DNA of 60,116 nt, filler included. It is 4 parts of 4 records of this genome, joined end to end, with 100 filler letters (N's around TTAATTAATTAA, not from the genome) between each part and the next. Parts side by side here need not be neighbours in the genome. Positions count along the whole stretch, not along the records: positions 14,261 to 32,881 come from SRR31156797_13140; 3 more parts are not named here. One strand, written 5' to 3'. Each line of letters starts with the position of its first letter. The first letter of the stretch is position 1. Both the position numbers and the translations under genes were made by a program. Below the pieces are notes generated by a model. The model searched no databases and was not told the DNA's origin. It saw only the letters and a program-made list of their open reading frames with translations. This document shows positions 14,365 through 33,946 of this stretch, piece after piece.

Positions 14365-14874
14365 ATGGCAGCTCCGTTATTTACCGTTAATGCACATCGG
14401 CATGATCCATACCGAACATTTAAATTCCAGGTGGTTATCGACGGCAAGCCCGTTGCCGGCCTGCGAAAAATGACTGCCCTGAAAAGAACGACCGAAGCGG
14501 TTTCCTGGCGCAGTGCCGGCGACCAGAGCCATGAGCGCAAATTGCCGGGGGGCACCAAATATGATGGTATTACCCTGGAACAGGGACTCACCCACGATCC
14601 CGTGTTTGAAAACTGGGCCAACGCCGTGAACAACTTTCAGGGTGATGCGGCCATGTCACTGAGAAATTTCAGGAAGGACATCGTTATTAACGTGCTGAAC
14701 ATGCAGGGACAAATTGCGATTTCCTACGTAATTTATCGCGCCTGGGTGTCGGAATACCAGGCACTTCCTGATTTTGATGCAGGCAATACCAATACCGTGG
14801 GGATACAGACCATCAAACTGGAACATGAGGGTTGGGAACGCGACACCTCAGTGACCGAACCCACAGAAAACTAA
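14365..14874 (+). CDS. eCIS tail tube protein (T4 gp19-like, Afp1/5 type)
   Basis: RHDPYRTFKFQV, KLPGGTKYDGITLEQGLTHD, AWVSEYQALPDFDA, KLEHEGWERD. Confidence 0.93.
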   Translation: MAAPLFTVNAHRHDPYRTFKFQVVIDGKPVAGLRKMTALKRTTEAVSWRSAGDQSHERKLPGGTKYDGITLEQGLTHDPVFENWANAVNNFQGDAAMSLRNFRKDIVINVLNMQGQIAISYVIYRAWVSEYQALPDFDAGNTNTVGIQTIKLEHEGWERDTSVTEPTEN

Positions 14875-14877
14875 CCC

Positions 14878-15684
14878 ATGCAACGCGTCCGGTTGCCGGG
14901 TGGACTGCTGGTTGACGGAACCCGCCACCAAATTGCGCTTTTCCGGCCCCTGACCGGGACCGTTGAACTGGCCATTGCCCAGGCCCGTGAAATCAATGAA
15001 TTTTATCCGGCCTTTGTCACCCGCATCCTGTCTGCTGCCGTGGCGTCCGTGGGTACCGAGCCCTTTACCCCCCATGTGGCAAAAGCCATATCAGTAGCGG
15101 ACCGGCAGGTATTGTTGGGAACACTTCTGGCCATGCTGGGCAAGGATACCATATGGATGCAGCCGTGGTGCCCGTCATGCGGTCAGCGTTTTGATGTGCC
15201 TGTCACCCATTCACAGCTTCCCATTGTAGACGCCCCGGGTGATTATCCGGTATTCCAGGGCAGGGTGGGGGATCAGACCGTTGGACTTAGGGTACTGACC
15301 GGTGAAGCCGAGGAGATGCTCTCCACCATTGAGGATGATGCGGCGGCATTAAGTGCATTGGTTGCATATGTCGTTGACTGGGGGGATGAAAAACCCTTGG
15401 GCCGGCTCACCAGAGATGAACTTGACCAGATTGAGCAGCAGTTGGAAGAGGGTTCCCCGGCCATTGCCGAAGAGGTGATGAGTCAGTGTCCCTATTGCGA
15501 TGCAGATGTAACACTGGCATTGGATTTCATTGCCGGATTGCTTGAAGAGGATTCAATTTTGCAAGACATTCATGAAATTGCCATGCATTATCATTGGAGC
15601 CAGGAGGCCATCACAGCCCTGCCGCGGATGCGCAGAAAACAGTATTTAAAAATGATAAATACTGCCCGGGGGCTTGGGGAGTGA
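14878..15684 (+). CDS. eCIS tail-assembly chaperone/baseplate-associated protein with CxxC motifs and DUF6760-like C-terminus
   Basis: LPGG...FRPLTG, SVADRQ, CPSC and CPYC, IHEIAMHYHWSQEAITALPRMRRKQY. Confidence 0.75.
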   Translation: MQRVRLPGGLLVDGTRHQIALFRPLTGTVELAIAQAREINEFYPAFVTRILSAAVASVGTEPFTPHVAKAISVADRQVLLGTLLAMLGKDTIWMQPWCPSCGQRFDVPVTHSQLPIVDAPGDYPVFQGRVGDQTVGLRVLTGEAEEMLSTIEDDAAALSALVAYVVDWGDEKPLGRLTRDELDQIEQQLEEGSPAIAEEVMSQCPYCDADVTLALDFIAGLLEEDSILQDIHEIAMHYHWSQEAITALPRMRRKQYLKMINTARGLGE

Positions 15685-15687
15685 ACC

Positions 15688-16638
15688 ATGGGTCTGTTTC
15701 AACGATTTATTAAACAAAGTAAACAAAGAGTTTGGGCATACGGCCCCGGACCTGATTTGCCGGTCTCATCACATGATGAGGCCATAATGGCAAATGAGAC
15801 CGGGCCGAAAGCCGATCAGCACAGGGCCAGACATTCCGGACGGATTGTCGACAGGACGCGTGACCTTTCAGCCGTAAGAGATGGTGATTCGAAACCCGTT
15901 TTAGATCTGGGACAGGAAGACGATAGTAACGTGGGAATGAGTAATGATTACGTTGGAAACAGTAATGTAAGTAGCATATCAACTGATTTCAGTGACCCTG
16001 GTGTCACCTTGAATACCCAGGATTTTCAAAGCGGGCCGTCGCATTCCAATGATTTGGAAAGTGATCCCTGCATTGTGAAAAATGATATTCAAATCAGTAA
16101 GATGCAATCTTGCAAGACACATAAAACGGAAAGTGAAAATGAACAAGTTGAGTTGGACGCTGGTGAGGAGACAGGTTTGCCAAGGGGGAACCGTGCCGGC
16201 CCTGTTGCTGATATTTTATTGCATGAGAATCAAACAAAAATGAATCGTCCACAAAAGGAACCCGAAGAACGGTATCAGGACCAAACGCCTGAAATGGACG
16301 CCGACGGGATGCTTTTCAATAAAGCCGCCCTCACGGAAAAAAGAGTGCCTGAAACGGAAAATGACAGTGCCGTATCCATGGAAAGGGCACTGGACCACCC
16401 TGATCTTCCGGCGGGTGTACGCGGGGCATTGGAAAAAATCCAGGCGGATTTTATCAAACAGCCCGATCCAGACATGAAACGCGCAGTAAGCGTCCAAAAC
16501 AAACAGACGCAAAAGGTATCAATCGGCCGGGTCACTGTCCGGGTGAAGCTGCCCGAAGAAAAGCCCCCGGCACATAAACCGGCCCCCTCTTTTGGCGCTG
16601 AAAAAATAGTCAGCCGGTACTTTATGGGAGGCGCATAA
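15688..16638 (+). CDS. eCIS-associated intrinsically disordered protein
   Basis: 316 aa, acidic low-complexity, short C-terminal VSIGRVTVRV motif; translationally coupled to the next gene. Confidence 0.65.
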   Translation: MGLFQRFIKQSKQRVWAYGPGPDLPVSSHDEAIMANETGPKADQHRARHSGRIVDRTRDLSAVRDGDSKPVLDLGQEDDSNVGMSNDYVGNSNVSSISTDFSDPGVTLNTQDFQSGPSHSNDLESDPCIVKNDIQISKMQSCKTHKTESENEQVELDAGEETGLPRGNRAGPVADILLHENQTKMNRPQKEPEERYQDQTPEMDADGMLFNKAALTEKRVPETENDSAVSMERALDHPDLPAGVRGALEKIQADFIKQPDPDMKRAVSVQNKQTQKVSIGRVTVRVKLPEEKPPAHKPAPSFGAEKIVSRYFMGGA

Positions 16639-17279
16639 TGGCGTTAAATCCTTCGGGATTGTCAGAGGCGGTCCTGGCGTTGCGCACGCTGCTGGGACAG
16701 CATATTAACGGGCTTGATGAAAACCGTATCAATATCGGCGCGCCCAAACAAACCCAGGATGAGCTGACCGGGTCTGATCAACAGCTTAGTATTTTTGTCT
16801 ACAATGCACAGATTTCACCCAATACGGCAGATGTGCATCCGCTGGATACGCCTACCGTAAGGCTTCATTGCCTGATTACACCGTTTGGGGTAGCCGATTC
16901 CGAAGCCAATATCTCGGCAGGTGAAAATGAGTTGAGATTAATGGGAGAGGTGCTGCGCGTGATGCACGAAAACCCCTCAATCACCTTACGCCGTCAGGAC
17001 GGCCAAGTGTATGCGAGCATTCAGCTTATGCTCAAAAATGTGGACGAAGATCACATGAACCAAATCTGGTCTGCCCAGCCCGATACCGCCTACCGTCTTT
17101 CGGTGGGGTGCGAACTTGCCCTGGTACCGGTCACCATTGAGCCCCCAGCAAGACCCCAGGCACCGGACACCCGTTTGGTTCAAGTCCGCCACTATGCAAA
17201 ACCCCTCCATGGCACCGACCCCCAGGAGGTTATTGACAACCGGACACCCGACATTACTGAAATTGTAAACCCGGACTGA
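16638..17279 (+). CDS. eCIS tail terminator/cap (Pvc16/Afp16, DUF4255)
   Basis: LSIFVY, LHCLITP, LMGEVLRVMHENP, QIWSA...YRLSV pattern; precedes the ATPase. Confidence 0.85.
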   Translation: MALNPSGLSEAVLALRTLLGQHINGLDENRINIGAPKQTQDELTGSDQQLSIFVYNAQISPNTADVHPLDTPTVRLHCLITPFGVADSEANISAGENELRLMGEVLRVMHENPSITLRRQDGQVYASIQLMLKNVDEDHMNQIWSAQPDTAYRLSVGCELALVPVTIEPPARPQAPDTRLVQVRHYAKPLHGTDPQEVIDNRTPDITEIVNPD

Positions 17280-17283
17280 TGTT

Positions 17284-18633
17284 ATGAGATGTGCTGACCC
17301 AGCCTGGACCATTGAAAAAGATGCATCCTCCACACCGTTGCTGTCACAGGAATGGGAACGGGTGGAGATGATCTGCCGTTGTCTGGCTGAAATCCGCAAG
17401 GGCAAACTGCCCGACCAAGAGATGAAAAAACAGCTGCACAGGTACCAGCACAAAGTTGCCGAACTTCGCAACAGTCCGAATTGGAAACAATTTACCGGTA
17501 AATATGCGCTTTCAAATATTGATCTGGATATCTGCATGTTTGCAGCAGCCCCCCAGTTTAATCCCCAGGTGGGCTGGCTGATGCACAATCTTCAGCCCAG
17601 CATCAATGCCACAGCCCCCTGCGGCGCGTTAATTGCCGAACTGCTCTTTTTGAACACCCAGGAAATTCCTTTGCTGCGCAAACAGCTAGACCGCAATTCT
17701 ACACTCTTCACCCAGGGGATTGTGCAATGTGAAAAAGATGATTTTTACGCGCCCATAAAGCCCACCAGTGCGTTTCTCTCTTTTTTGCAAAGCCGGGGTC
17801 AAACAAAGATGATCCCTCAAATTGCCGGGGCAACCCACATTCAGCAAGCGGGCACACTGGATGACCTGGTGATCAGCAAACGCTGCCGCAGGGTCCTGGA
17901 TGAGTTCCTCCATTTTGTCCGCCACGGCCACTGGGTCCAGGAACAGTGGGGGGCGTCCGTGTTCGGCGGTCCGGTGGCACTTTTCAGCGGCCCCTCGGGC
18001 ACCGGGAAAACCTTTGCGGCTGCCGTGATCGCCAACGAGCTTGATTTTCCATGTTTCCGGGTTGATCTGGGCATGCTGGTCAGTAAATATATCGGTGAGA
18101 CCGAAAAAAATCTCAGTGCGCTTTTCGAGGCTGCCGGCGGTCACCAGGCCGTACTGCTTTTTGACGAAGCCGACAGCCTGTTCGGCAAACGTGGTGAAGT
18201 CCGGGATGCCCGGGACCGTTACGCCAATATGGAAGTCAGCCATCTGCTGAGCCGGATGGAAACCCATCATGGCCCCTGCATTCTCACCACCAACCTGCGG
18301 CGGCATCTGGATCCTGCCTTTGCCCGGCGTTTTCAGATGAGTGCGGAGTTTGTACGCCCGGATGCCCATGCACGCCTTGAGCTTTGGAAAAAGCTGCTGC
18401 CCCCCAAAGCCCCCATGGCAAAAGAGGTGGACATGGTCAAGCTTAGCCAAACTTTATCGTTAACCGGTGCCCAGATTCGCAACATCATCCTGCATGCCGC
18501 CTGTTGTGCCGCAGGCGGCAAGACCCCGATTGACAACCGCCATTTGGCCCGTGCCGCTTATGTGGAAATGCGTAAAGAAGGAAAAGAGGTGGTTTTATCC
18601 AGCCTGGGCGAACTCAAGGCGTTTCTCCAATGA
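17284..18633 (+). CDS. eCIS AAA+ ATPase (Afp15/Pvc15)
   Basis: Walker A GPSGTGKT, VSKYIGETEKNL, Walker B LLFDEADSLFGKR, DRYAN, LDPAFARRF. Confidence 0.95.
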   Translation: MRCADPAWTIEKDASSTPLLSQEWERVEMICRCLAEIRKGKLPDQEMKKQLHRYQHKVAELRNSPNWKQFTGKYALSNIDLDICMFAAAPQFNPQVGWLMHNLQPSINATAPCGALIAELLFLNTQEIPLLRKQLDRNSTLFTQGIVQCEKDDFYAPIKPTSAFLSFLQSRGQTKMIPQIAGATHIQQAGTLDDLVISKRCRRVLDEFLHFVRHGHWVQEQWGASVFGGPVALFSGPSGTGKTFAAAVIANELDFPCFRVDLGMLVSKYIGETEKNLSALFEAAGGHQAVLLFDEADSLFGKRGEVRDARDRYANMEVSHLLSRMETHHGPCILTTNLRRHLDPAFARRFQMSAEFVRPDAHARLELWKKLLPPKAPMAKEVDMVKLSQTLSLTGAQIRNIILHAACCAAGGKTPIDNRHLARAAYVEMRKEGKEVVLSSLGELKAFLQ

Positions 18634-18875
18634 TCCGGATTAACGATCTGGTCATTGAGCTACCGGCCCAGCTGGGGCATAAGGCAGATCGTATTGCCAG
18701 ACTCGTGCGGGAAAAAAGCGCAGGTTTGCAGATTAATTGCCGGGAAACAAACTTTCCGGGAACAATGGACACCATGGCGCTTGGGGATATCGAAATTAAA
18801 ATGCCGGCAACTGATAACGCGATTGCAAAACAAATTGTTTTACGCATCGAACAGTCACTGAAAAAACGAGGTTGA
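18630..18875 (+). CDS. Small eCIS-associated hypothetical protein
   Basis: 81 aa, ATGA overlap with the ATPase; IRINDLVIELP start. Confidence 0.6.
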   Translation: MIRINDLVIELPAQLGHKADRIARLVREKSAGLQINCRETNFPGTMDTMALGDIEIKMPATDNAIAKQIVLRIEQSLKKRG

Positions 18876-18876
18876 T

Positions 18877-19485
18877 ATGCTGACCAAGGGAGCCTTGATC
18901 GAATACTCAAAGGACACCATGCCTTTGCTGCTGGGGTTTGAATTCAATCCCAGAAACATTACCTTCAACCGCAGCACCAGCTGGACATCAAAAGAGACAC
19001 AATCATTAAATAAAGATCCGGATAAAACCGGCAGCCTGGAGATGGTTTCCGACGGTATCACATTTTCTCTTGAATTTTTGCTGGATGCAACGGACCGGAT
19101 GAATGATGATACAGGCCTGGCCGCTGCATTTGGGGTACAGCCACAGATTGATGTCATTGAACGTATGGCCACCCTGCAACCATCCAAATCCGAAGGGGTC
19201 CTAAAACTTTGGGTTGTGTTAAAAAAAAACGAGCATACCACGCATAAAAAATTGCCCACCCTTTTGTTTTTGTGGGGCATGCGTATAATTCCGTGCCAGA
19301 TGACCAGTTGCAGCGTGAACAATGAGGCATTTCTTCCAACACTGATTCCCTACCGTGCAAGGGTTGACCTAACACTCAAGGTCATGGAAGACCATGCCCT
19401 TTATGCCGCGGAGCAAGTGCGGCAGCTGGCCATGATCGCAGCACATCATCTTGATCCCGGAACGCAAATACTGAGCACCATCTGA
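18877..19485 (+). CDS. CIS tube-initiator protein (Afp7 N-terminal-like)
   Basis: FEFNPRNIT, LLDATD, LFLWG, PYRARVDLTL. Confidence 0.8.
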   Translation: MLTKGALIEYSKDTMPLLLGFEFNPRNITFNRSTSWTSKETQSLNKDPDKTGSLEMVSDGITFSLEFLLDATDRMNDDTGLAAAFGVQPQIDVIERMATLQPSKSEGVLKLWVVLKKNEHTTHKKLPTLLFLWGMRIIPCQMTSCSVNNEAFLPTLIPYRARVDLTLKVMEDHALYAAEQVRQLAMIAAHHLDPGTQILSTI

Positions 19486-19498
19486 TGGGAGTTTACCA

Positions 19499-19783
19499 AT
19501 GATCTTTAAAACCTCCAGATATCAAAAACTTTGTGACAATACAGAAAATATGCGGCTGCCCCACCGCCCCATAGAGACCTTGGACGGGCTGCTCGAACAT
19601 ACCGTGACAGGCGGTCAGCGCCTGGATCAGATTGCAGCCTACTATTATAATGACCCTTCGGCCTTTTGGCGTATCCTGGATGCCAATCCGGATATACGTT
19701 CCGCAGCTGATTTCTGTATGGGTGACTATGCCGGTCAAACCATTGTGATTCCGGGGATAGACCCGAACAAGTTAAAGGGTTAA
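19499..19783 (+). CDS. LysM-like protein (Afp7 C-terminal half)
   Basis: HTVTGGQRLDQIAAYYYNDPSAFWRILDANP...GQTIVIP. Confidence 0.85.
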   Translation: MIFKTSRYQKLCDNTENMRLPHRPIETLDGLLEHTVTGGQRLDQIAAYYYNDPSAFWRILDANPDIRSAADFCMGDYAGQTIVIPGIDPNKLKG

Positions 19784-19790
19784 CCACGCC

Positions 19791-20858
19791 ATGCTTGAAC
19801 CATCCCAAGCCTATGCCGCAGCGCCGAACTGCATTGTCGCCATTGACGGAACGCCCATTGACGATCTGGCCGATGCCTTGATCTTTGCTGAAACCAGCAT
19901 TCACCGCAACAGACCGGCCATGGCCCGTCTGGCCTTCAGCACAACCCGTTCGGAGGATGACGGCAACTGGCAGGTTATTGACTCTGAGTTGCTGCGCCCC
20001 TGGAAGGCCCTGGATATTACAGCGATTCTGGATGGCGAGGAAACGGTGCTGTTTTCAGGGTACATTGTCCAAATCGAGATCGAATTCATCAATCAAGCCC
20101 CCCATGTTATGGTGATCGGCCAGGATAAGACCATCCTGCTGGACCGGGAACATAAAACACGGGTGTGGGGGGATGCAAACCAGCCGGTAACCGATGAAGA
20201 TGTGGTAAACGCAATTGTGGCCGAATACGGGCTGTCTGCCCAGGCCCATACCGGCGGCAGCCATTGCGGATTAAACCAGGATGAAACCGATGTCCGCCTG
20301 ATGCATCGCCTGGCCCGGGCCAATGGATTTGAACTGGCCCTTTGTGAAGACTGTTTCTATTTTGGCCCCCCCCGCCTGGATGCTGAAAATAAAAATCCCA
20401 TTTTAATCTATTGCGGCGAACAGACCAATTGTTCGGCGTTCAAGCTGCTGGATGACGGCTACAAGCCCGATGCCGTCCAGGTTGATGTCTACCATGACCG
20501 GGATTATGAACGACAGGTTTTAAATCCCGAGCAGGAAAGGCTTGGCACGGAGCCGTGCGATCAGACATCCTGCGCCTTGGGGCCGTTTGTGTGGAAGGCT
20601 CAGGTACATGGACTGCCGGCAGCCCAGGGCCTGGCCGAAGCCAAAGCCCGGGTGGAGGAACATGCATGGAAAATCAGGGCAACCGGCTCCTTGGACGGCC
20701 TGGCTTACGGCGCGGTGCTAAGTCCTGGAAAAACTGTTATGGTCCAGGGTATCGGTCAAACGCACACCGGCAGGTATTACGTGGAAGAAGTGACGCATAA
20801 GATCAGTACACAAGGATATCAGCAGGACTTTGTCCTCTTGCGCAATGCGCGCAAATGA
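19791..20858 (+). CDS. Spike hub protein (phage late control D / gp27-like half of VgrG/Afp8)
   Basis: LFSGYI, QDETDVRLMHRLARANGF, VQGIGQTHTGRYYVEEVTHKI...YQQDFVL. Confidence 0.88.
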   Translation: MLEPSQAYAAAPNCIVAIDGTPIDDLADALIFAETSIHRNRPAMARLAFSTTRSEDDGNWQVIDSELLRPWKALDITAILDGEETVLFSGYIVQIEIEFINQAPHVMVIGQDKTILLDREHKTRVWGDANQPVTDEDVVNAIVAEYGLSAQAHTGGSHCGLNQDETDVRLMHRLARANGFELALCEDCFYFGPPRLDAENKNPILIYCGEQTNCSAFKLLDDGYKPDAVQVDVYHDRDYERQVLNPEQERLGTEPCDQTSCALGPFVWKAQVHGLPAAQGLAEAKARVEEHAWKIRATGSLDGLAYGAVLSPGKTVMVQGIGQTHTGRYYVEEVTHKISTQGYQQDFVLLRNARK

Positions 20859-20919
20859 GCTTAAAACTCGATAATCGAATACAAAGACACCGGGCATCAT
20901 ATAGAGGAACAACACGTTC

Positions 20920-21735
20920 ATGGATCAGTTGCTGGAAAAGTTATATCAACAGCTTAGCTCAAAAAAATACGGCAAGTACCGGGCCACGGTCGTTGACCGT
21001 GATGATCCCGAGGGCAAGGGACGGTTGCGCCTGCTGATTCCGGCGGTGCTCGGCGACCAGGAGAGCGACTGGGCCCTGCCCTGTTTTTCCAACGGCGGCA
21101 GCAGTGATGTGGGATCAATCACGATTCCCGAACTCGATGCCCATGTCTGGGTCGAATTTGAGGCAGGCGACCCGAGCCTGCCTATCTGGACGGGTACTTT
21201 TTTCGGCCGGGACGATAATCTTCCCGACGAGGCGCAAATAAGCCCGCCGGATGCCCGTGTGGTAAAGACCCCCAAAGGCTCTGTCTTTGCCATAAGCGAT
21301 CAGGGCGATGCCGAATCAATCCTGCTCAAACACTATGCCGGTCAACAGCTCAACATGGATGCCGGGGGCAATGTGACCATTGAAAACACCCGGGGGGAAA
21401 CCATAAATCTTGATGCTGAAAACCAACGGCTCACATGTGAAGACAGACAGGGAAATGCCATTGAGCTGGATAGTTCGGGGATTACCATTAAGGAAACAGG
21501 GGGCGCCGAAATCACCCTAAAAGACGGTGCCGTCATAATCGAAGGCGCCCAGGAAGTTACGCTTGACGCCATGGCCGTCAATTTAGGCGGCAGCGGCGGA
21601 GAGGGAGTGATCAAAGGGCAGAGTTTTATGAATATATATGCGACGCACACCCATGCAACATCCATGGGGCCATCGGGACCACCAATTCCCATGGGCGAGT
21701 TCGCCACCATCTCCTTTAAAGTGAAAAGCACCTAG
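20920..21735 (+). CDS. Spike protein (baseplate assembly V / gp5 OB-fold + beta-helix) with HxH apex
   Basis: YGKYRATVVDRDDPEGKGRL, WALP, VWVEFEAGDPSLPIWTG; C-terminal THTHAT. Confidence 0.92.
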   Translation: MDQLLEKLYQQLSSKKYGKYRATVVDRDDPEGKGRLRLLIPAVLGDQESDWALPCFSNGGSSDVGSITIPELDAHVWVEFEAGDPSLPIWTGTFFGRDDNLPDEAQISPPDARVVKTPKGSVFAISDQGDAESILLKHYAGQQLNMDAGGNVTIENTRGETINLDAENQRLTCEDRQGNAIELDSSGITIKETGGAEITLKDGAVIIEGAQEVTLDAMAVNLGGSGGEGVIKGQSFMNIYATHTHATSMGPSGPPIPMGEFATISFKVKST

Positions 21736-21744
21736 GGGTAAGCC

Positions 21745-23361
21745 ATGAAGATACGGCAAAATAACGAATTTTTAAAATTTCCCATGGCCGTGGCGGCAGA
21801 CGGCCTGCAGGTCGCTTCGCGTACCGAGCATATCCGGGATCAAATCGAACAACTCCTTTTTACGGGCAACAATGAACGGGTGCTTCGCCCTGAATATGGG
21901 GCAGGGGCTAAAAAACTGGTGTTCGAGCCGGTGAATTCTTATCTTTGCCGGATTACCCAGAAGCGTATTCAAGTCGGCCTTATGGAATTGCTCCAGGGCG
22001 AGGCCGCCCCGGAGTCGATTTCGGTTGAGGTCACGGCCGAAAACGAAAAACTGTTCATTGATATCAGTTACACCCTGGCGGCCATTGATTTAGAACAAAA
22101 TCACACCTTCCCGGTCCAATGGTCCGATACCATGTCCTCGCCAGACATGGTTGCCAAACAATGGGATTTTTCAAAAAAAGAAGAGACCCGGGCTTGTACC
22201 CCGAACCTGAAGCTTGATTTTGTCCAGGACGAGGCAGGCAACTGGTCGGCCCAGCGCCGGGTGGAGAACCTGCCCGAAGAACTGCCCGATTGTCCGGACG
22301 ACTTTGACTGGAAACAGCGGGACTGGGACAGCTTTCGTTTTGCCATGCTCTCTGACTTGAAACGCGCGTTTCCCCAACGTACGGACTGGTCGGTTTCGGA
22401 TCTGGAAACCGTACTTGTGGAAATTTTGGGGTTCGGGCTGGACATGCTTTCGGATAAAGCGGATCGCATCATGAACGAATCCTTTCTGGAAACCGCCTGC
22501 GATGCGGACCGTATCAAATTGTTTACCGATTTTATCGGATACAATCCATACACGAGACTTTCCCCCGAAATTTCGGATGTGTCCGATTACTGGCGCAGCA
22601 CCCCCCATGAGATGAACCTGGCCCGACGTTACGCGCCCATGGAAATTATCAGCCAGGAGCGCATGGTGACCCCGGATGATTATGCCCAATGCCTCACCCG
22701 CCATCCCCTGGTCGAGCAGTGCCTGGTTTCTTTGTCCTGGGACGGATCAACCCAGGTGATGACCACGGCCTTTATTCTTCCCGGCGGGCTCAAGCTTGAT
22801 ACGGTTCTGGACGGGCACCAAATCACCGATGATTTAAAACGTTCCATTGCGGCATTTCACAAGGCCCTTGATTTTTCAGTGCAGCGCAGCGGGATATGCT
22901 GGATGCCGGATCTGACCGACGGCGTTACGCCGCGCATGCTGCTGGAACGCTATGTCAACCTGTATCGCATGGCAGGACAAACAGTCAGGCTCATGGATGC
23001 CCGGCAAGTGGGAATTGATATCACGCTGCATGTGACCATTCAGCCCAATTTTTACTGCTCGGAGGTGATGTACGAAGTCAAGCGCATCATGAATGATGAA
23101 CCCGGGGGATTTTTTGAACCCGGCCGCCTGGGCTTTGGTGAAGACGTGACCATCGGTGATATTATGGAGTGGGTCATGTCCGTTGACGGTGTGGCCAATG
23201 TCCGGGCCGATCAATTAAAACGCAGCGGCAACTGGCCGGATGTCACCGCCGGCGGTGTTATTGCCCTTAAAAATAATGAGTATGCCGTGATCCGAAATTC
23301 CCTGGGTATCCCCCCTGTCGGCAAATTTGTCCTCACATTTTTGGGAGGTATTAAAGGATGA
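21745..23361 (+). CDS. gp25/GPW (Afp9) sheath initiator fused to a baseplate-J-like domain
   Basis: N-terminal HIRDQIEQLLFTGNNERVLRPEYGAG (gp25), then RDWDSFRFAML, QERMVTPDDY, FFEPGRLGFGEDV (baseplate J). Confidence 0.82.
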   Translation: MKIRQNNEFLKFPMAVAADGLQVASRTEHIRDQIEQLLFTGNNERVLRPEYGAGAKKLVFEPVNSYLCRITQKRIQVGLMELLQGEAAPESISVEVTAENEKLFIDISYTLAAIDLEQNHTFPVQWSDTMSSPDMVAKQWDFSKKEETRACTPNLKLDFVQDEAGNWSAQRRVENLPEELPDCPDDFDWKQRDWDSFRFAMLSDLKRAFPQRTDWSVSDLETVLVEILGFGLDMLSDKADRIMNESFLETACDADRIKLFTDFIGYNPYTRLSPEISDVSDYWRSTPHEMNLARRYAPMEIISQERMVTPDDYAQCLTRHPLVEQCLVSLSWDGSTQVMTTAFILPGGLKLDTVLDGHQITDDLKRSIAAFHKALDFSVQRSGICWMPDLTDGVTPRMLLERYVNLYRMAGQTVRLMDARQVGIDITLHVTIQPNFYCSEVMYEVKRIMNDEPGGFFEPGRLGFGEDVTIGDIMEWVMSVDGVANVRADQLKRSGNWPDVTAGGVIALKNNEYAVIRNSLGIPPVGKFVLTFLGGIKG

Positions 23362-26189
23362 AACCGATTACTCGCTGGAATCGTGCCGGGCTGTCGCGCT
23401 TTCGTTATATTGATGGGAATGCCCCCAGCTTTTTTGCCGAAATGGTCGCTCAATACCGCACGCGGCTTCTGGACCAACAACCGCCGGTATTGAGCAAAAA
23501 AAACGCCCCATTACAGGCGTCACGACTTTACGGCAACCAGAGCAGGGAATGGGGGGCACAAATACTTCGCAGTTTTGCGCGCAGCAGCCACGTGCTCACC
23601 GAGCATATCAACGATTTTGCAAACGAGATGACCGTCCCCACCGCTGCCCGGTGGGAATCCCTGCGCAAGTTAGCCAATATGGTAAATTATCTGCCCGCAC
23701 CACCGGCATCTGCGGCAACCTACCTGGCGCTTACGGTTAAAGCGGGTAAAAAAGGCACGGTCGGGCACGGCCTGCAGATCAAACAAAAACCCGGCAGCAA
23801 CGAACAACTGTTATTTGAAACCATAGCCGACCTGCGGGTGAATGCCTGTCTCAATCAATTCTTTGCCAAAAACTATAATGTCTGTCCGGCGATTCTTAAA
23901 GGATCTGAAATAGAGCTGGAGGGCCGTCTGGAGGATTTAAAAACATCCAGACCGATTTTGATTGCGGATGAAGAAAACGGCAAAAGCCATGCCGCAGTCC
24001 TTCAATCCATTCTGCCCAAAAAAAATACAACGGTGTTAAAAATTCACCCGGCCCTGCCTGCAGGCACGGGTATTCGTAAAGGGCGGGCCATCATCTATTG
24101 CAATCCCGAAGTGGCCGCGCCGCTGACAGGTCCCGCATCCGGACAAGTGAGCCTGAAACAGGCGTTCATGCTCAGGGAAAAGCCGGATCTGGTCCGGGGG
24201 GATATTATTGTTATATCCGATGGTTCACGTACCCGCTTTGCCAAGGTACGCAAGGTTGATGGTCATAATGTGGTGGTTCACGCAGATACATCCACCGGCG
24301 GGCCACAATGGCTGGGCAGTTTTGACAGCCCCAGGACCTATGTAAGCAAAGCCCTTGAAATTTCCATTTCCGGTATTTGGGAACGGGCCGGTAAAATTTC
24401 GACCTTGATGGTTCCCGGGGACTGGACATGGCTGGCCGGCAGTGACGTGGCCGATGTAAAGTGGCTGGGCCAGGGCAAAAAGTTTAAACTTGCCCAGGGG
24501 GCTCAGGTGCTAAGCGTTGATTATCAACCACCGGGCAAAGCCTCCCTCAAAAAATATAATGAAGGATATTCCTATGTGCGCATCTCCCATGCAAATATGC
24601 CCGGCGACTTTTTAAACCCCCAGAGAATTGTTGTTGTGCCCCGTGTGAAAACCTGGAAGCTGGACAGATTTTTGGATCAGCTCACCAATATCAACGGCGT
24701 TGAACAATTTGAATGCATGCCTGAAGATAAAATTGTAAGCAATGCCTACGGGGTCATTCGCCGGAAGAATCAACTCTGCTGGGGCAGGCTCCTTCAGCTC
24801 AGACGTTTTGATGGGGTGTTAAAGGGTTTGGTTGAATCGCCCCAGGCCTGGGGCGGGGGATTGTACTATCTGGCACAGACCAGGCTTTATACCGCCTTTA
24901 AAAAACAGCTGCGCTGTCACGGGTGGCAGCGCAATGAAACGGTGGTGGCGCCGGAATGCATTGTGCCCCATGATCCCGGTGTTTTGGATGCCTTGTCTTT
25001 GAACAGGCGTATTTTTGTGACGAGCAACTCGGCTGTCCATACGGCCAGAGTCTCAGGGATAGACCGCAAGTCAGGATGTTTCAGCCTGACGGTTTCAGGA
25101 CTGTCGCCCGGGGAGGCATTGTTAAGCTTTTCCACATCCTTTGCCGGGAATGTCTGCAAAGTTTTTCATGGCAAACAGGCCCCATCAAAAATTGTCTCCT
25201 CGGGGGATCAATGTGTGCCGTGGTTCACCATTGCCCTTGATGTAACCGATATTTCATATATCCCAAACAGCAGTTTTTCAACAGGTGTTGCGGCTGATAT
25301 TGAGGTGATCATCCATGGTGAGACCTGGCAGCAGGTGGAGCAGCTAACAGATTCCCGGGAAGCCGATCGCCACTATGTGGCCCAGTTGCAGGCCGACGGC
25401 TCCCTGCGCTTGTCTTTTGGCGACGGCATTAAGGGGAAAATGATTCCACCGGGTGTGGACAATATTCAAATTTGCTTTCGAAGGGGCAATGGGTTATCAG
25501 GAAACTGTGAAGCCCATACCCTGGAAAAATTATCAGCCCCCCATCCGCTCATAGAATCCGTGCACCAGCCATTCCCAGCGTTTGGCGGGAACAGCCGTGA
25601 GCCCGAAGATTCGCTTAGGACCCATATTGCCGACAAACTTTTTGCCATGGACCGTGCGGTGAGCGTGGAGGATTTCACCCACCTGGCTTCCCTGCACAGT
25701 TCGGTGTGGCAGGCCGTTGCCCGGGAGGGCGGATACGCCTCAAGCAGGGCCAAGTTGATTGATGTGGTGGTTGTCCCGGCCGGCGGGACAGCCTTGCACA
25801 AAGACTTGAAAAAACAGTTGCGCCTCTTTCTGGAGAGCCGGGCCATTCCCGGTATTGTTGTGCGCGTGGAAGAATATGTCGAGTTAAATCCTTTCATTGA
25901 GGTAGAACTGTTTATCGACAGCTCACGTTTCGATCCAGATGGGGTAAAAAACACGGCCCGCACACGTCTGGAGGCCGATTACGGTCTCAAACAGGCTATT
26001 TTAGGACAATCCCTTGGCATTGGGGGATTCTATAAACGGCTCGAAGCCATAACGGGCGTAGAACACGCAAAGGTGACAATAAACGGCCGGCTTTTACAGT
26101 CTGAATTTGCCGTGGGCTTCAATGAGCTCGCCTGTCTTGACAGGCAGGGTAACAACTTGGAAATTCGCACAATGGAGTATAGCTTATGA
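23358..26189 (+). CDS. eCIS baseplate J-like protein (Afp11 type)
   Basis: TAARWESLRKLANMVNY, LSFGDGIKG, GGNSREP, DRAVSVEDF. Confidence 0.88.
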   Translation: MKPITRWNRAGLSRFRYIDGNAPSFFAEMVAQYRTRLLDQQPPVLSKKNAPLQASRLYGNQSREWGAQILRSFARSSHVLTEHINDFANEMTVPTAARWESLRKLANMVNYLPAPPASAATYLALTVKAGKKGTVGHGLQIKQKPGSNEQLLFETIADLRVNACLNQFFAKNYNVCPAILKGSEIELEGRLEDLKTSRPILIADEENGKSHAAVLQSILPKKNTTVLKIHPALPAGTGIRKGRAIIYCNPEVAAPLTGPASGQVSLKQAFMLREKPDLVRGDIIVISDGSRTRFAKVRKVDGHNVVVHADTSTGGPQWLGSFDSPRTYVSKALEISISGIWERAGKISTLMVPGDWTWLAGSDVADVKWLGQGKKFKLAQGAQVLSVDYQPPGKASLKKYNEGYSYVRISHANMPGDFLNPQRIVVVPRVKTWKLDRFLDQLTNINGVEQFECMPEDKIVSNAYGVIRRKNQLCWGRLLQLRRFDGVLKGLVESPQAWGGGLYYLAQTRLYTAFKKQLRCHGWQRNETVVAPECIVPHDPGVLDALSLNRRIFVTSNSAVHTARVSGIDRKSGCFSLTVSGLSPGEALLSFSTSFAGNVCKVFHGKQAPSKIVSSGDQCVPWFTIALDVTDISYIPNSSFSTGVAADIEVIIHGETWQQVEQLTDSREADRHYVAQLQADGSLRLSFGDGIKGKMIPPGVDNIQICFRRGNGLSGNCEAHTLEKLSAPHPLIESVHQPFPAFGGNSREPEDSLRTHIADKLFAMDRAVSVEDFTHLASLHSSVWQAVAREGGYASSRAKLIDVVVVPAGGTALHKDLKKQLRLFLESRAIPGIVVRVEEYVELNPFIEVELFIDSSRFDPDGVKNTARTRLEADYGLKQAILGQSLGIGGFYKRLEAITGVEHAKVTINGRLLQSEFAVGFNELACLDRQGNNLEIRTMEYSL

Positions 26190-27754
26190 GTGAGCCTGCA
26201 AACATGCCACCCAATCATTCCCGGTTCGGGCACCTGCTTTACCATGCGCTGCCCGATCATTACCGGGACAGTGACGACGGGACGTTGGCCCAGTATCTGG
26301 ACATCTGCGGCAGCCTTCTGGACCGGATCAATCACGCCCTTGATACCCTGCATGAAGATTTTCTTCCGGGCGGGGCCGATGCGATGGCCGGGGCACAGTC
26401 CTGGACAATCCCGTACACAGCCAAACTTTATGGTGCAAAACCGGTCTGCCCCGATGATGAAGGGCGCAGGCGGGAAGTGCAAAACAGCATTCGCTGGAAT
26501 AAGCAAAAAGGGACGCTGCGGTGCATAGAAGAGATTGTCGAGGCCCTGGGGGATGTGGAGTGCGTTATCTGTGAAGGACGAAACAAAACCATATCTTCGG
26601 TTCACATCGGGCAGCCGCGTCTGCCTGGGGCCTATTTCGGACAAAAAGAAAACGAAAATGCAGCAGCCCTGCATCCGGGCAACCCGGCAGCCACCCCGTT
26701 CATTGGCCGGACTATGGCACCGGAACTTGCAGAAATCATCAGCCCGGATGTTGAAAAATCGACCATTGCAGGCAAATCCGTGACCTGGCGCACGCCTAAG
26801 AACCATGGTGTCCCCCAAGCGGCCAACGCATTTTTTGACCGCTCATTGCGCAGCCTTGATTTTCGTAAAGCCTCCATCAGAGGCGGTCAGGCAAATCCCT
26901 CCCGCATTGTGCTGCACCTTCCCCCGTTTACAGGTTTTTTCCAACCCGGAATGGAACCGATGACATGGAATCCTGACTGGCGCACCAGTGGCCATGAAAG
27001 CCAACTGTTGTCCGTAACCCGTACTCCACAGGACCAGGCACGCGATGTGCTGGAGATCAGAGGGAACAGTAGCAAACCGGTTTATCTGAAAGGCCGGATA
27101 CTGATAAAAACCCTGGACGTGGTTCTGAAAAATGTGGTGCTGCAGGACAGTCTGGAGGTCCGGGGCGGTAACCTGACCATGTCCCGGTGTGCGGTGTCCA
27201 ACGTGGTGGTGACCAGCCGGCATGTGAAAGACCCCTGGTGTACGGTGAACGATTCCCTGGTGAACAGTTTGCAGCTTGCCCGGGGCACAATCCGCCTGGA
27301 ACACGTCACGCTGCTGGAAAAAATTATTTGCGATACACTGCTGGCAAGTGATTCAATTTTGACGGTATCCCATGTAAAACGCGGCGATGAAAAGAAAATT
27401 TCTCTTGATGGATATCTGCGTTATTCAATGGTCCCCAAGGGCTTTTTGGGGCAACCTAAAACCATGGAACTTCAATGGGATAGCGCAACGGTACGTGAAG
27501 AAAAGCCCCATTTTTTCACATCCGACTGGGGGACGCCGGGCTTTGGTGCCGTAGTGCGGGGATCTTCGAATTTTGCAGAATACGGCGCGGAAAACCAGGG
27601 GGCACTGGGGTGTTACAACCACATGTTCTTTTCCCGCAGATTTGCGGCCATGAAACGCAAGGTAAAGGATTTTCTGGCCTTCGGAATGACTGCGGCTGTG
27701 GTGGAGGACCCGCTTCTGTGGGATGAGGGGCTATTTGGACTTTCAAATGACTGA
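26186..27754 (+). CDS. eCIS baseplate wedge protein (P2 gpI/Afp12-like)
   Basis: LYHALPDHYRDSD, SWTIPY, RRREVQNSIRWNKQKGTL, YGAENQGALG. Confidence 0.82.
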   Translation: MSEPANMPPNHSRFGHLLYHALPDHYRDSDDGTLAQYLDICGSLLDRINHALDTLHEDFLPGGADAMAGAQSWTIPYTAKLYGAKPVCPDDEGRRREVQNSIRWNKQKGTLRCIEEIVEALGDVECVICEGRNKTISSVHIGQPRLPGAYFGQKENENAAALHPGNPAATPFIGRTMAPELAEIISPDVEKSTIAGKSVTWRTPKNHGVPQAANAFFDRSLRSLDFRKASIRGGQANPSRIVLHLPPFTGFFQPGMEPMTWNPDWRTSGHESQLLSVTRTPQDQARDVLEIRGNSSKPVYLKGRILIKTLDVVLKNVVLQDSLEVRGGNLTMSRCAVSNVVVTSRHVKDPWCTVNDSLVNSLQLARGTIRLEHVTLLEKIICDTLLASDSILTVSHVKRGDEKKISLDGYLRYSMVPKGFLGQPKTMELQWDSATVREEKPHFFTSDWGTPGFGAVVRGSSNFAEYGAENQGALGCYNHMFFSRRFAAMKRKVKDFLAFGMTAAVVEDPLLWDEGLFGLSND

Positions 27755-27773
27755 TTGAGATCATAAAAAGAGG

Positions 27774-30212
27774 TTGGCAATGAAAATACAGATTTCCGGT
27801 AATGGTTTTTGTGAGGATAAGCAGTTTTCCGGGGTTTATCTGCAACAGGGAAGAATGCTGCTGGATGCGGACTGGAATGAACAGGTTGATATCTCCAAAA
27901 ACGCACTCCAGGGAGCCATGGCTGATGTGATCGGTTCGGGTATCCCCAAGGATGGGGGCGTTACGGTTGACACAAATGGCCGGATTTCTAAAGGTGTCTT
28001 TTATGCAAATGGAGAGCGGGTCGAACTAAAAAGCACGGTGGACCTGCTCAAGTGCCTGCCGCCGGTGCCTTCCGGCCAGGAACTGGTTTTTTACGCAGAC
28101 GTCTTTGAACGTGAAATCACGGCGGTTGAAGATCCGGATATTTGCGATCCGGCGCTTTATGGCGCAGACACCTGTACCCGCACCAAAAAAGTGGTGCAGT
28201 CACGGTGGATTAAAAAAACGCTGTTTAGTGGACTGCCCCAGGCCGGTAAATCCCGGTTCAAAATCCAACGCATCGGAGCGGTGGAGCCATGCCTTTTCCG
28301 GCTGGAAATTCATGATATCAACCTTGCAAAAAAACAGCTCACCCTGAAATGGTCCTTTGAAAACGGCGCAGAGCAGTATCGGGCGGACGAGTATCCCAAA
28401 GATTTTGCTGCCGGCAACTGGGTGTATGAATATTTTGATGCAGACTCCGAAGGATTTTACGGATTTAATCCCCCAGGCTCCACGCTTCAGCGGCCGGTTT
28501 TAACACGGGACATCGAAAATAATCCCGGCAGCCATGGGTTTGTCAAACGCTGGGACGGTTTTGCAACCATTGAATACAGCCAGGTGACCCATGGTGTTTT
28601 AAAACAGGGGAAACTGTCATCTCTTTATCATCATAACGGTCTTCAACTGGATCCCAACCTGGGGCAGGGCATCGGCGGGGCAATCCGCTACGGTACGGCC
28701 AACAATTTCTTCTCAGTGAATCTGGGATCGCTGCTACTGGAACTGTCTTTGGATATGAACGCCCTTTTTGTGGGAGATTACTGGCAGGTCAAGATCAGGG
28801 CACAGTATCCTGATCTTTTGCTGGACCAAGCGCTGCCCAACGGCTACCGGCACCATTACATTAAACTGGCTGAAAAAAAACCATCCCAACCGTTACAGAT
28901 GGTTGATGGCCGGCATGCCGCCTTCCCATCGTTAACCACGCTGACATCCGGTGATATTGCCGGAGAAACCGCCGGAAAAACCGTGGCCCAGGAACTGCAA
29001 ACTTTGGCAGATAAAAATGCCGTACAGGATGGTCGGCTGGATACCTGCGAATCGGATATTGCCGGACTGCGCGAATCAATCAAACACAATGAGCAACGCC
29101 TGGCCTTGTGGGGCAGGGGGGTGGTTGCCGGGTGCATTCCGGTTGAGCCCGAAACAACCATTGTCGCTGAGCGCCTGTCGGTTGCCATGGACTTTACGTC
29201 GGGCACTTTGATCGACGGCACAGGCGCGCTCTGGATGAACACAGGCACTTTAGGCTTAACGTTTTCAGCCGACGGCGTGTTCACGTTTCACAAACAAAGC
29301 ACCCTTATTTCGACATTGAAGACGAAATATAATATCAGCGGTATTACGATCAACCGTGAGATGGGCTCAGTTGTGACTTTTACGGATAACCCGCTTCTGC
29401 TGCTGGAAATCCTCCAGGCCTATGCTACAATGGATTTGCCCCAAATACTGACCAAAGCCGATGATTTCGATCCCAAAGATTTTGTAAAAATGGACACCGC
29501 CGGAACCATTGAAACACCCATATACGTATACCCCGAAGACGGAAAACTCAAAACCCTGTGTGCATATTTCAAAGATGAAAACGCGGCCGATGCATTGATC
29601 TTTGATGTCTCCCGGCGCACCGAACTTCTGCTGGGCCGGCTCGAACATAAAACCATCCCGCGTACCGCAACAGACAGATACACCCGGGCCGGCACCAGAG
29701 AAACATTCAAAGTGGTTGAAAAATCCCCGCGCATCCAACGTGTATTTAAAACCCCAACAACTCCGGTTGGCCGGTCCATTCATGAAAAAGAGTGGGCTGA
29801 TTATTCGTGTTTTTCACAAACTACACCGCCCAATGACGGGCAGATCTGTGTGGGCACCCTGATCGTTGCGGGCAAAGAGGCTGCCGTGGTCACCACCGGT
29901 CGTGAACAGGTGTACACGTCACCATTCAGGCAGGTCAGCCCGTTGTTTAAAACGCAATCTCCAACGGCTACAGGCTCAGGTGATACACCACAGGGGCCGC
30001 GGTATGATGTCCAGTTAACGGCAGTGGGGCTATCCAAAATCGCTTTTTTGAAAGCCTACCGGGATTTGACAGGCGTTAGCCTGGCTGAAGCCACAACAAT
30101 GATAGAATCGGGTGAACCTATCCTCATGAGCGACGTAAGCGCCCTTGATGCCCGAAGATTCAAGGCAAGGCTGGAGGCCACAGGGGCCGCCGTCAAATTG
30201 ATCTCGCTGTAA
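27774..30212 (+). CDS. DUF6519-family eCIS fibre-position protein with C-terminal ribosomal L7/L12-like domain
   Basis: FSGVYLQQGRMLLDADWNEQ, YADVFEREITAVEDP, ADTCTR, FRLEIH, LKWSFENGA (DUF6519); coiled coil + WGRGVVAG; C-terminal L12-CTD-like 30003-30212. Start may be ATG 27780. Confidence 0.88.
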   Translation: MAMKIQISGNGFCEDKQFSGVYLQQGRMLLDADWNEQVDISKNALQGAMADVIGSGIPKDGGVTVDTNGRISKGVFYANGERVELKSTVDLLKCLPPVPSGQELVFYADVFEREITAVEDPDICDPALYGADTCTRTKKVVQSRWIKKTLFSGLPQAGKSRFKIQRIGAVEPCLFRLEIHDINLAKKQLTLKWSFENGAEQYRADEYPKDFAAGNWVYEYFDADSEGFYGFNPPGSTLQRPVLTRDIENNPGSHGFVKRWDGFATIEYSQVTHGVLKQGKLSSLYHHNGLQLDPNLGQGIGGAIRYGTANNFFSVNLGSLLLELSLDMNALFVGDYWQVKIRAQYPDLLLDQALPNGYRHHYIKLAEKKPSQPLQMVDGRHAAFPSLTTLTSGDIAGETAGKTVAQELQTLADKNAVQDGRLDTCESDIAGLRESIKHNEQRLALWGRGVVAGCIPVEPETTIVAERLSVAMDFTSGTLIDGTGALWMNTGTLGLTFSADGVFTFHKQSTLISTLKTKYNISGITINREMGSVVTFTDNPLLLLEILQAYATMDLPQILTKADDFDPKDFVKMDTAGTIETPIYVYPEDGKLKTLCAYFKDENAADALIFDVSRRTELLLGRLEHKTIPRTATDRYTRAGTRETFKVVEKSPRIQRVFKTPTTPVGRSIHEKEWADYSCFSQTTPPNDGQICVGTLIVAGKEAAVVTTGREQVYTSPFRQVSPLFKTQSPTATGSGDTPQGPRYDVQLTAVGLSKIAFLKAYRDLTGVSLAEATTMIESGEPILMSDVSALDARRFKARLEATGAAVKLISL

Positions 30213-30372
30213 CCCAATGCGGTTTATCTGTACACACATGGAGGCCAGGCCATAAAGACAGTTGGCGAAAAAGCCTGATAAATAGGCAAAAAGAGCATGG
30301 ATCGCGGTGTTGATTGGTCACAATGGACAAAAGCAGCCTATCTGATGGGCTGGGATTAAGAGGAGATTTGTA

Positions 30373-31377: not shown

Positions 31378-31426
31378 AAATACAAGACTTTATTCTACGT
31401 GGTCAGGCAGGTTGTTTTAGTAACAC

Positions 31427-32614: not shown

Positions 32615-32664
32615 ACTCTTTTCTGCCTGCCCATCAGCCCGCTTGTCCGGGCCGAATCCATTTG

Positions 32665-32881
32665 TTATGCGCTTATTTTTTCTCGCACCCGGGCAACCTC
32701 CGGGCTTTCAATGTACTCATCATAGGACATGAGGCGGTCAATGATCCCGTCTGAGGTGACCTCGATGATACGGTTGGCAATGGTGTTGACAAACTCATGG
32801 TCGTGGGAGGTGAAAAGAACCACTTCGGGGAACGCCACCAGGCTGTCGTTAAGGGCGGTGATGGATTCCAGGTCCAGGTGG
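32665..32881 (-). CDS. ABC-F family ATPase, C-terminal fragment (YbiT-like)
   Basis: Hand translation HLDLESITALNDSLVAFPEVVLFTSHDHEFVNTIANRIIEV...ISA*. Confidence 0.85.
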
Positions 32882-33276: not shown

Positions 33277-33334
33277 AAATTCCTCCTATAAAAGCCTGTC
33301 TTCTGTCATTCCTGTATCATCCAAAAACCTGAAG

Positions 33335-33910: not shown

Positions 33911-33946
33911 GTTTTTTCCTTTTTGGACATTTACATGAAACGGGCA

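Follow-up and report, generated by a model that had tools for sequence, protein, structure and literature searches.

A contractile injection system fibre of the eBAP5 type with a C-terminal L7/L12-like domain in a Desulfobacterales-type bacterium

In the catalogue of fibres of extracellular contractile injection systems (eCIS) by Nachmias et al. (Nat Commun 2026, PMC12923769), DUF6519 is defined as eBAP5 and counted among five baseplate-anchor domains, with 658 genes. According to the main text of that catalogue, in ~90 % of cases the fibre genes lie 3' of homologues of Tail_P2_I and Afp11/12, eBAP5 is predicted to attach to the Tail_P2_I protein, eBAP5 fibres have macroglobulin-like shafts and pectin-lyase, lectin and hemagglutinin C-termini, and 165 Pfam domains are reported on eCIS fibres (PMC12923769). 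The stretch of DNA analysed here, hereafter called the window (60,116 nucleotides, filler included), comes from an environmental Desulfobacterales-type bacterium and contains a gene for an eBAP5 fibre of a contractile injection system (CIS), the product of which ends in a domain with the fold of the C-terminal domain (CTD) of ribosomal protein L7/L12, hereafter the L12 module. The fibre protein shares with the catalogued eBAP5 fibres the DUF6519 N-terminus, the Tail_P2_I neighbour, the location in a CIS locus and the modular C-terminus. It differs from them in the L12 C-terminus, which is absent from the main text of the catalogue; that text, as distinct from the supplementary domain lists, names no ribosomal, L12, PF00542 or ClpS domain (PMC12923769). 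No description of an L12 domain on a contractile injection fibre was found in the literature searched, and the statement in the initial annotation of the window that no description of the fusion was known can be kept for that literature, the main text of the catalogue included. The protein can be described as an eBAP5 fibre carrying a C-terminal, presumably distal, domain that has no counterpart among the fibres of the searched literature.

Non-ribosomal settings of L12 domains have been described in bacteriophages, where bL12 domains are embedded in larger polypeptides of up to 724 amino acids and some homologues lack the domain, a pattern which Mizuno et al. 2019 read as repeated independent acquisition (PMC6375957). 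The L12 module of the fibre is likewise embedded in a larger protein and likewise has module-free homologues (P0011-P0013). The phage proteins are encoded in phage genomes and their roles are left open, with an action on host ribosomes discussed (PMC6375957), whereas the window protein is the fibre-position protein of a phage-tail-like particle and is encoded on a bacterial chromosome. A tblastn search of a phage collection with the module as the query gave six records with 33-38 % identity, none of them annotated.

The L12 module of the fibre protein

The longest open reading frame (ORF) of the fibre gene, 27774..30212 (+), has 812 codons counted from TTG at 27774, and residue numbers refer to this frame throughout (TTG 27774 = residue 1). 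The last ~69 amino acids had been read initially as an L7/L12 CTD behind a Thr/Ser/Gly/Pro linker, and this reading was borne out by a profile search, in which PF00542 (Ribosomal_L12) matched residues 744-809 of the module at profile positions 1-66 of 67, with a score of 45.6 bits (cut-off 25.9; E = 8.6e-12). Residues 744-812 have exactly the letters given in the initial annotation. The C-terminal 90 amino acids by themselves scored 50.9 bits against the same profile. When the PDB chain sequences were searched with phmmer, all 17 distinct matches were L7/L12, bL12 or mitochondrial bL12 (bL12m). The best of them, 1CTF from E. coli (E = 4.2e-9, 39.6 bits), aligned with the module without gaps over 67 residues, of which 28 were identical by hand count, the same number as had been estimated from the gapless alignment in the initial annotation.

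On the 1CTF alignment the E. coli L12 number is the fibre protein residue minus 690. The equivalents of K65, K70 and R73 are unchanged (K755, K760 and R763), those of V66 and I69 are Ile and Leu (I756 and L759), and those of K81 and K84 are changed in the window module (A771 and T774), in agreement with the earlier observation that the helix residues are kept as K, I, L, K and R and the two later lysines lost.

The structure of the last 90 residues was predicted with AlphaFold2 (AF2) from a 13-row alignment. The mean predicted local distance difference test score (pLDDT) was 80.8, and ~90 over the domain, for which a beta-alpha-alpha-beta-alpha-beta topology was predicted. In a Foldseek search of the PDB with this model, ranks 1-13 were all L7/L12 chains or ribosome entries, and 1ctf was superposed with a root mean square deviation of 1.3 Å over 66 columns, a target-normalised TM score of 0.88 and 42 % identity. 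The profile matches and the predicted structure together confirm that the fibre protein ends in a domain with a genuine L12-CTD fold, in frame with its DUF6519 part.

The N-terminal part of the fibre protein matched PF20129 (DUF6519) with 52.5 bits (cut-off 22.4) in two stretches, the better one covering residues 16-67. The linker in front of the L12 module is predicted to be disordered (pLDDT <50 at residues 1-15 of the model of the C-terminal part), and its length and composition differ among homologues. No PHROG family matched the fibre protein at E ≤ 0.01. The true start of the gene is probably ATG 27780 rather than TTG 27774, since the motif AGAGG is found six bases 5' of this ATG (context ...AAAAGAGGTTGGCAATG...) and since all N-termini of the full-length homologues are MKIQISG or MRTQISG, matching ATG 27780. 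The stop codon is at 30210-30212, and no RNA evidence was listed for 29400-30400.

Distribution of the fusion and relation to other L12 domains

Among the 84 proteins in the database that matched the full fibre protein, nine had an L12 domain (P0003-P0009, P0014 and P0015). Seven of these, P0003-P0009, are full-length proteins of 808-889 amino acids with 61-85 % identity and the L12 module present, P0014 is a fragment with the L12 domain, and P0015 is a distant homologue (33 % identity, 959 amino acids). PF20129 was recorded for all 84 homologues except the fragment P0014, and the automatic JGI name of two homologues is 'ribosomal protein L7/L12'. The fragments P0087 and P0156 also carry the module. 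With a local hidden Markov model (HMM), two tandem modules were found in P0009 (73.8 and 75.9 bits), two weak ones in P0015 and one partial module in P0016. The nearest module-free homologues, P0011-P0013 (44-45 % identity), stop at ...REQISTSPFMQLAVK, where the linker of the window protein begins.

The fusion is also present in the complete genome G022, which encodes an 814-amino acid orthologue with both DUF6519 (54.5 bits) and Ribosomal_L12 (53.3 bits), and in MAG.189, a metagenome-assembled genome (MAG). A contig of 23,974 letters from run X5, which carries a different study and organism label, aligns without gaps over positions 27767-30272, with differences at 186 letters, and spans the linker and the module unbroken; a chimeric join at the linker, named initially as something that reads might reveal, can thus be dismissed. 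From run X1, a possible source run, only scattered contig pieces matched the stretch, and no conclusion is drawn from them. A word-index search with the C-terminal part returned P0003, P0004 and P0087 only, which has little bearing on the spread of the fusion, and the metagenome locus scan gave no close fusion-bearing locus, its best locus (L081) being 45 % identical and without L12. As judged from the sequences compared, the fusion is a rare feature of a narrow clade, Desulfobacterales-labelled by record titles, that uses a widespread mobile module.

The fibre protein is set apart from canonical L12 in several ways. TIGR00855, the NCBIfam model for full-length L12, gave 41.6 bits with the fibre protein (cut-off 84.4) and was matched at profile positions 50-123 of 125 only, and no L12 N-terminal domain family was found in the Pfam scan of the fibre protein at E ≤ 1. 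Compared with the CTD of bL12 (PF00542; 1CTF), the module has the same fold, the same length, the helix-4 residues and the T76-G77 turn. The fibre protein has neither the N-terminal dimerisation/L10-binding domain nor the hinge of L12; instead, the module is attached to a protein of ~740 amino acids encoded in a CIS cluster, outside the rplJ-rplL-rpoB operon neighbourhood, and K81, K84, P91, K95-G97 and K100 are not conserved in the fibre modules.

A separate canonical rplL, the presence of which had been put forward for checking, was found in both fusion-carrying relatives, G001 and G022. In G001, a Desulfobacterales MAG and the closest genome in the GTDB set, the fibre gene is split over two small contigs (L001 and L003), and a separate rplL of 130 amino acids lies between rplJ-like and rpoB-like ORFs. 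Of the 41 genomes consisting of G001 and 40 relatives, 36 had a canonical L12 match with 104-114 bits, including one each in G001 and G022 (104.7-105.8 bits). A second, weaker match was present only in these two genomes (58.1 and 57.6 bits), in both cases in a long open frame. The fibre module has 32 % identity (22/69) with the rplL product of G001. Because of this low identity and the grouping of the module with non-ribosomal repeat proteins in the tree described below, the module is not a recent rplL copy, and a recent capture of the host rplL was rejected.

The wider relationship of the module was assessed with a phmmer search of 1.84 billion representative proteins with the last 90 residues, which gave 1011 matches at E ≤ 1e-3, 91 of them at E ≤ 1e-10. 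The best 150 of the 1011 were 96-3776 amino acids long, had mostly 2-7 matched stretches and included almost no single-domain proteins of the size of rplL, a ranking that favours multi-copy proteins because whole-sequence scores sum over repeats. A Pfam scan was made of 112 of the best 150, leaving out P0005 and P0014 (fibre homologues), P0138 (3776 amino acids) and P0201-P0235. PF00542 was found in all 112, and the companion domains were TIR_2 (in 10), TIR (in 6), zinc ribbons (in 4, 2 and 2), Pkinase and SPOR (in 2 each), and KAP NTPase, HSP70, caspase, Big_5, SprB and VWA_3 (one each). The matches of PADLOC models to these proteins were at domain level, to TIR and kinase, and several PHROG families without assigned function matched the module as such, among them phrog_26927 (101 of the 112 proteins) and phrog_5819 (83 of the 112). 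With the local HMM, 147 non-fibre proteins had 1-8 modules each, at least two in 145, usually on Pro/Ser/Thr-rich linkers. The modules were C-terminal in 81 of the 147 and made up the whole protein in 41, and 42 had a hydrophobic segment within the first 40 residues. No DUF6519 N-terminus was found among P0088-P0235.

The per-domain scores of the window module were 35-51 bits against the repeat proteins and 39.6 bits against E. coli L12, and with scores this similar, sequence distance indicates no donor. A quick maximum-likelihood tree was built from 191 domain rows and 69 columns, the rows being 15 modules from fibres, 30 canonical L12 domains from the relatives of G001, and 146 others. The tree is mostly weakly supported (114 of 183 inner branches <80). 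Ten fibre modules grouped as a single clade in it (SH-aLRT 95), and a larger group held 13 of the 15 (support 49). The rows next out from the fibre clade were the repeat proteins P0213 and P0144, not the local canonical L12. Outside its own clade, the fibre module has its nearest relatives in the tandem L12-CTD repeat proteins; like the fibre they carry the module C-terminally and on a linker, and they differ in having mostly 2-8 copies, either fused to TIR, kinase or zinc-ribbon domains or as repeats alone, and in lacking DUF6519. On sequence grounds the module belongs to a wider pool of mobile, often tandem, non-ribosomal L12-CTD modules. The initial interpretation that a ribosomal domain had been co-opted was thus right as to the L12 fold and too simple as to the source, given the 32 % identity to the rplL of a relative and the grouping with non-ribosomal repeats. 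In the literature searched there was no paper describing this non-ribosomal L12-CTD class, including its fusions with TIR and other conflict-system domains, and no name for it.

The CIS locus and the other contigs of the window

The coordinates of the fibre gene, its parts and the surrounding features are given in Table 1.

Table 1. Features of the fibre gene and its surroundings in the window
Feature	Position	Strand	Basis or remark
CIS tail-fibre gene, eBAP5/DUF6519 type, with C-terminal L12-CTD module	27780..30212	+	810 aa from ATG
N-terminal DUF6519/eBAP5 region, presumed baseplate anchor, residues ~3-380	27780..28913	+	PF20129
Long predicted helix, possible coiled-coil shaft, residues 404-446	28983..29111	+	AF2 monomer, low confidence
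Thr/Ser/Gly/Pro-rich linker, residues 723-743	29940..30002	+	Composition, predicted disorder
L7/L12 C-terminal-domain fold module, residues 744-812	30003..30209	+	PF00542, PDB phmmer, AF2, Foldseek
Tail_P2_I-like baseplate gene, directly upstream of the fibre gene	26186..27754	+	PF09684
Rest of the CIS cluster, same contig as the fibre gene	14365..26189	+	Pfam scans, collinear with G022
AAA+ ATPase, Afp15 type, with N-terminal winged-helix-like region	17284..18633
Artificial spacers	14161-14260, 32882-32981, 52324-52423		N x44, TTAATTAATTAA, N x44; all-frame stop linker pattern

The assignment of the DUF6519 gene to the fibre position, made initially from the letters of the window, agrees with the definition of eBAP5 in the catalogue (PMC12923769) and with its place directly after the Tail_P2_I gene, for which PF09684 scored 18.7 bits, just under the cut-off of 20.6 (E = 0.0017). 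The rest of the cluster encodes a gp19-type tube, a baseplate-hub-like protein, an unknown protein, a Pvc16_N cap, the AAA+ ATPase, CIS_tube, a tail protein, a VgrG-like spike, a gp25 fusion and a baseplate wedge protein of 943 amino acids. The G022 locus is collinear with window positions 14261-30272, with 83.8 % nucleotide identity in one alignment of 16,044 columns. It has, in addition, a sheath gene of 495 amino acids (Phage_sheath_1 and Phage_sheath_1C) 5' of the tube gene and a gene for an eCIS_core (PF13699) protein of 831 amino acids 3' of the fibre gene. A complete CIS locus with the fibre in the fibre position is seen in this relative.

Two ORFs of the CIS cluster, 15688-16638 (316 amino acids) and 18630-18875 (81 amino acids), had no Pfam match, and their position is conserved in G022. 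The 316-amino acid ORF had no PHROG match either and occupies a slot in which one might expect a tape-measure or tube-initiator protein. Downstream of the fibre gene the cargo-side region 30273-31426 varies in comparison with G022 (L196:3881-6376). The window has a gene for an RNase T2 of 334 amino acids with a signal-peptide-like N-terminus at 30373-31377, which is missing from G022 and the X5 contig, and G022 and the X5 contig have ~2.6 kb, containing the eCIS_core gene, between the equivalents of window positions 30272 and 30282.

The window consists of four contigs (1-14160, 14261-32881, 32982-52323 and 52424-60116), and the contig with the CIS cluster begins 104 bp before the tube gene. 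A CIS fused to a type VI secretion system (T6SS) and without a sheath was considered and rejected, as the T6SS and CIS blocks lie on different contigs with an artificial spacer between them. The adjacency of the two blocks and the step in GC content from ~0.60 to ~0.52 are not real because the contigs were concatenated.

The T6SS block (4394-14212, GC ~0.60) lies on its own contig and encodes an FHA-C domain protein, TssJ, TssK (VasE), DotU/TssL, an IcmF-like TssM (1160 amino acids), TagF, ImpE and an ImpA/TssA-like protein, the ORF of which (12683-14212) runs into the spacer and is truncated by the contig end. None of TssB/C, Hcp, TssE/F/G and ClpV is found on this contig, which holds a partial cluster. 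On the fourth contig, region 52494-59992 contains two adjacent DUF2169 genes (369 and 380 amino acids) and, downstream of them, an ORF of 256 amino acids without a Pfam match, a gene for an RHS-repeat protein of 1148 amino acids (DUF6531, RHS repeats and RHS core) and an ORF of 178 amino acids, and from its gene content it looks like a T6SS-type polymorphic toxin/immunity arrangement. GC content goes down to 0.41 at 58001-60000. At the end of the third contig a low-GC patch (50001-52000) has 0.357, against ~0.50-0.54 in its flanks, with minus-strand ORFs at 50017-50910, 50855-51517 and 51504-52256.

Candidate roles of the L12 module

In the explanation preferred here, the N-terminal eBAP5 part would anchor the fibre to the Tail_P2_I baseplate protein, and the small, soluble L12-like domain, at the distal end of the fibre, would swing on its flexible linker of ~20 residues and act as a ligand-binding head through its conserved helix-4 face. 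In such fibres the C-terminal end is the site of the binding domains, and it is there that one module, or in some relatives two, is located. That the module is the ligand-binding head of the fibre is judged to be about evenly balanced.

Helices 4 and 5 of L12 form the surface that binds translation factors. To compare residue conservation on this surface, 12 modules from fibres and 146 other modules were aligned to one HMM together with 30 canonical L12 sequences. On the helix-4 side of the fibre modules, K65 (0.92), I66 (0.75), I69 (0.75) and K70 (0.83) are conserved, as are R73, T76, G77 and L80 (each 1.0), and A83, K107, E111, G114 and V117 are likewise kept in the fibre clade. The ratio of nonsynonymous to synonymous substitution rates (dN/dS), calculated by the Nei-Gojobori method for the pairs window/G022, window/MAG.189 and G022/MAG.189, was 0.37, 0.35 and 0.27 for the L12 module and 0.43, 0.35 and 0.35 for the linker. 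It was 0.15 (window/G022) for the N-terminal 380 residues, the slowest-evolving part of the protein, and 0.21-0.25 for the whole gene. The module is under purifying selection, yet evolves ~2 times faster than the anchor.

A complex of the module with the EF-Tu of G022 (397 amino acids) and GTP was predicted with an alignment of its own; alignment and ligand both differ from those of the calibration of the tool. The interface score ipSAE was 0.55 (runs 0.58, 0.49 and 0.55), compared with 0.00 for the best of three controls. The runs agreed in at least 70 % of contacts and partner pLDDT was at least 79. For the co-folding with EF-Tu, which had been suggested initially, the tool returned the verdict 'weak support'. 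Of the 80 solved complexes used for calibration, 58 reached the mark, as did 2 of the 110 mismatched pairs; just 7 of the 80 passed with a score ≤0.60, the range that also held both mismatches that passed. Among candidate ligands, the computations lend support to a G-domain protein such as EF-Tu alone, and that support is weak.

Several observations weigh against the preferred explanation. K81 is replaced by Ala in 0.58 of the fibre modules, K84 is Lys in only 0.5 (T in the window), and P91, K95, E96, G97 and K100 are lost, all of these positions being conserved at 0.97-1.0 in the 30 canonical L12 sequences. Canonical factor binding may be weakened or changed because these positions in helix 5 and later are lost, and the conservation of helix 4 could reflect fold stability alone. 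In the range of the EF-Tu score a pass is, in the words of the tool, 'more often wrong than right unless the guess was likely beforehand', and the pass may reflect mere likeness to L12, because solved ribosome structures contain contacts between L12 and factors. The full-length AF2 monomer had a mean pLDDT of 52.1, too poor for a fold search with the shaft. A DUF6519-type N-terminal ORF was present in 158 loci, drawn from the scans of GTDB and of metagenomes with L190 added. L190 of G022 was the only one of them with an L12 HMM match in the same ORF, the only other L12 match being the split MAG.189 copy (L001 and L003); the fusion is rare and is therefore no general solution for DUF6519 fibres. 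As for the particle itself, no sheath gene was found in the window with the G022 sheath as tblastn query (best E 0.29), its absence being explained by the start of the CIS contig at 14261, and the eCIS_core gene is absent from the CIS contig of the window, unlike in G022 and the X5 contig.

A bolder reading is that the L12-like head is a GTPase hook for EF-Tu or another translational GTPase, meeting it either as a receptor on the target surface or in the cytoplasm of the producer; this is considered unlikely.

The cytoplasmic version can be stated as an alternative in which the module binds EF-Tu, EF-G or IF2 in the producing cell, either during cytoplasmic assembly or because the CIS acts inside the cell like the Streptomyces or thylakoid-anchored systems, so that assembly, masking or firing would be coupled to the translation state. 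Conservation of the helix-4 factor-binding residues and the EF-Tu score, set against the best control, are consistent with it, and some CIS do act intracellularly (PMC12923769). The domains that accompany the module in other L12-like proteins (TIR, zinc ribbon, Pkinase, KAP NTPase and caspase) are usually cytoplasmic, which suggests that the modules meet mostly cytoplasmic partners, although the N-terminal hydrophobic segment in 42 of the 147 means that exported or membrane contexts exist as well. The eCIS_core gene of the G022 locus and a fibre anchored as in extracellular systems also argue against it, as does the degradation of K81, K84 and other canonical positions. In addition, a single L12 CTD has a low affinity for factors on the ribosome. 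An intracellular hook of this kind is considered rather improbable.

The module could also be a structural or solubility passenger, a ligand-free, soluble and fast-folding cap which protects the C-terminus of the fibre. The existence of close homologues without the module (P0011-P0013), its faster evolution (dN/dS 0.27-0.37 against 0.15 for the anchor), its variation in copy number between one and two, and the many kinds of domain exchanged among fibres, 165 Pfam domains being reported (PMC12923769), are what a passenger would lead one to expect. It would not account as readily for the conservation of surface-facing helix-4 residues across the clade (0.75-1.0) or for the retention of the module in homologues down to 33 % identity (P0015), and a monomeric domain on a disordered linker would be a poor stabiliser of a trimeric shaft. 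A mere passenger is held to be quite unlikely.

A third alternative, included among the initial suggestions, is a ClpS-like docking site for the AAA+ ATPase of the locus, serving assembly or cargo loading. ClpS belongs to the same fold class and shares a related alpha/beta fold with the module, and the locus does encode an Afp15-type ATPase with an N-terminal winged-helix-like region. The ClpS chains, however, appeared in the Foldseek search only from rank 14 (TM 0.57-0.67, identity 7-14 %), with every L12 entry ranked above them, and no ClpS match was listed in the Pfam scan at E ≤ 1 (HMMER filters drop most matches above ~0.1). ClpS binds the Clp_N domain, and the Pfam scan of the ATPase at E ≤ 0.01 gave only AAA, WHD and AAA_22, without Clp_N. 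Most DUF6519 fibres, moreover, work without the module, and docking to the ATPase is regarded as very improbable.

An artefact of assembly or annotation, that is, a chimeric join of the fibre gene with a fragment of rplL, deserves thought in a window of four contigs joined by artificial spacers, and is dismissed as having a negligible chance because none of the spacers lies in or near the fibre gene, the module at 32 % identity is no copy of the rplL of a relative, and the same fusion recurs in independent database proteins (9 of 84), the complete genome G022, MAG.189 and the X5 contig.

CIS fibres set the attachment target of injection particles, and a catalogue of their binding domains dates only from 2026. 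A fibre ending in an L12 domain points to a protein ligand and not to the usually assumed glycans. The host being an environmental bacterium, none of the results has a bearing on disease. L12 CTDs are soluble, and the module of ~70 residues is a handle for direct pull-down of its partner. If the head were a hook for translational GTPases, the fibre would be one case of a broad class of mobile L12-CTD modules that reach the translation machinery, and the fusions with TIR, kinase, caspase and KAP-NTPase domains and the phage proteins would use their modules likewise. L12-CTD-like modules are common outside the ribosome, which is possibly the more general result, and since no paper on this class was found, the fibre may be a tractable entry to the general role of the module.

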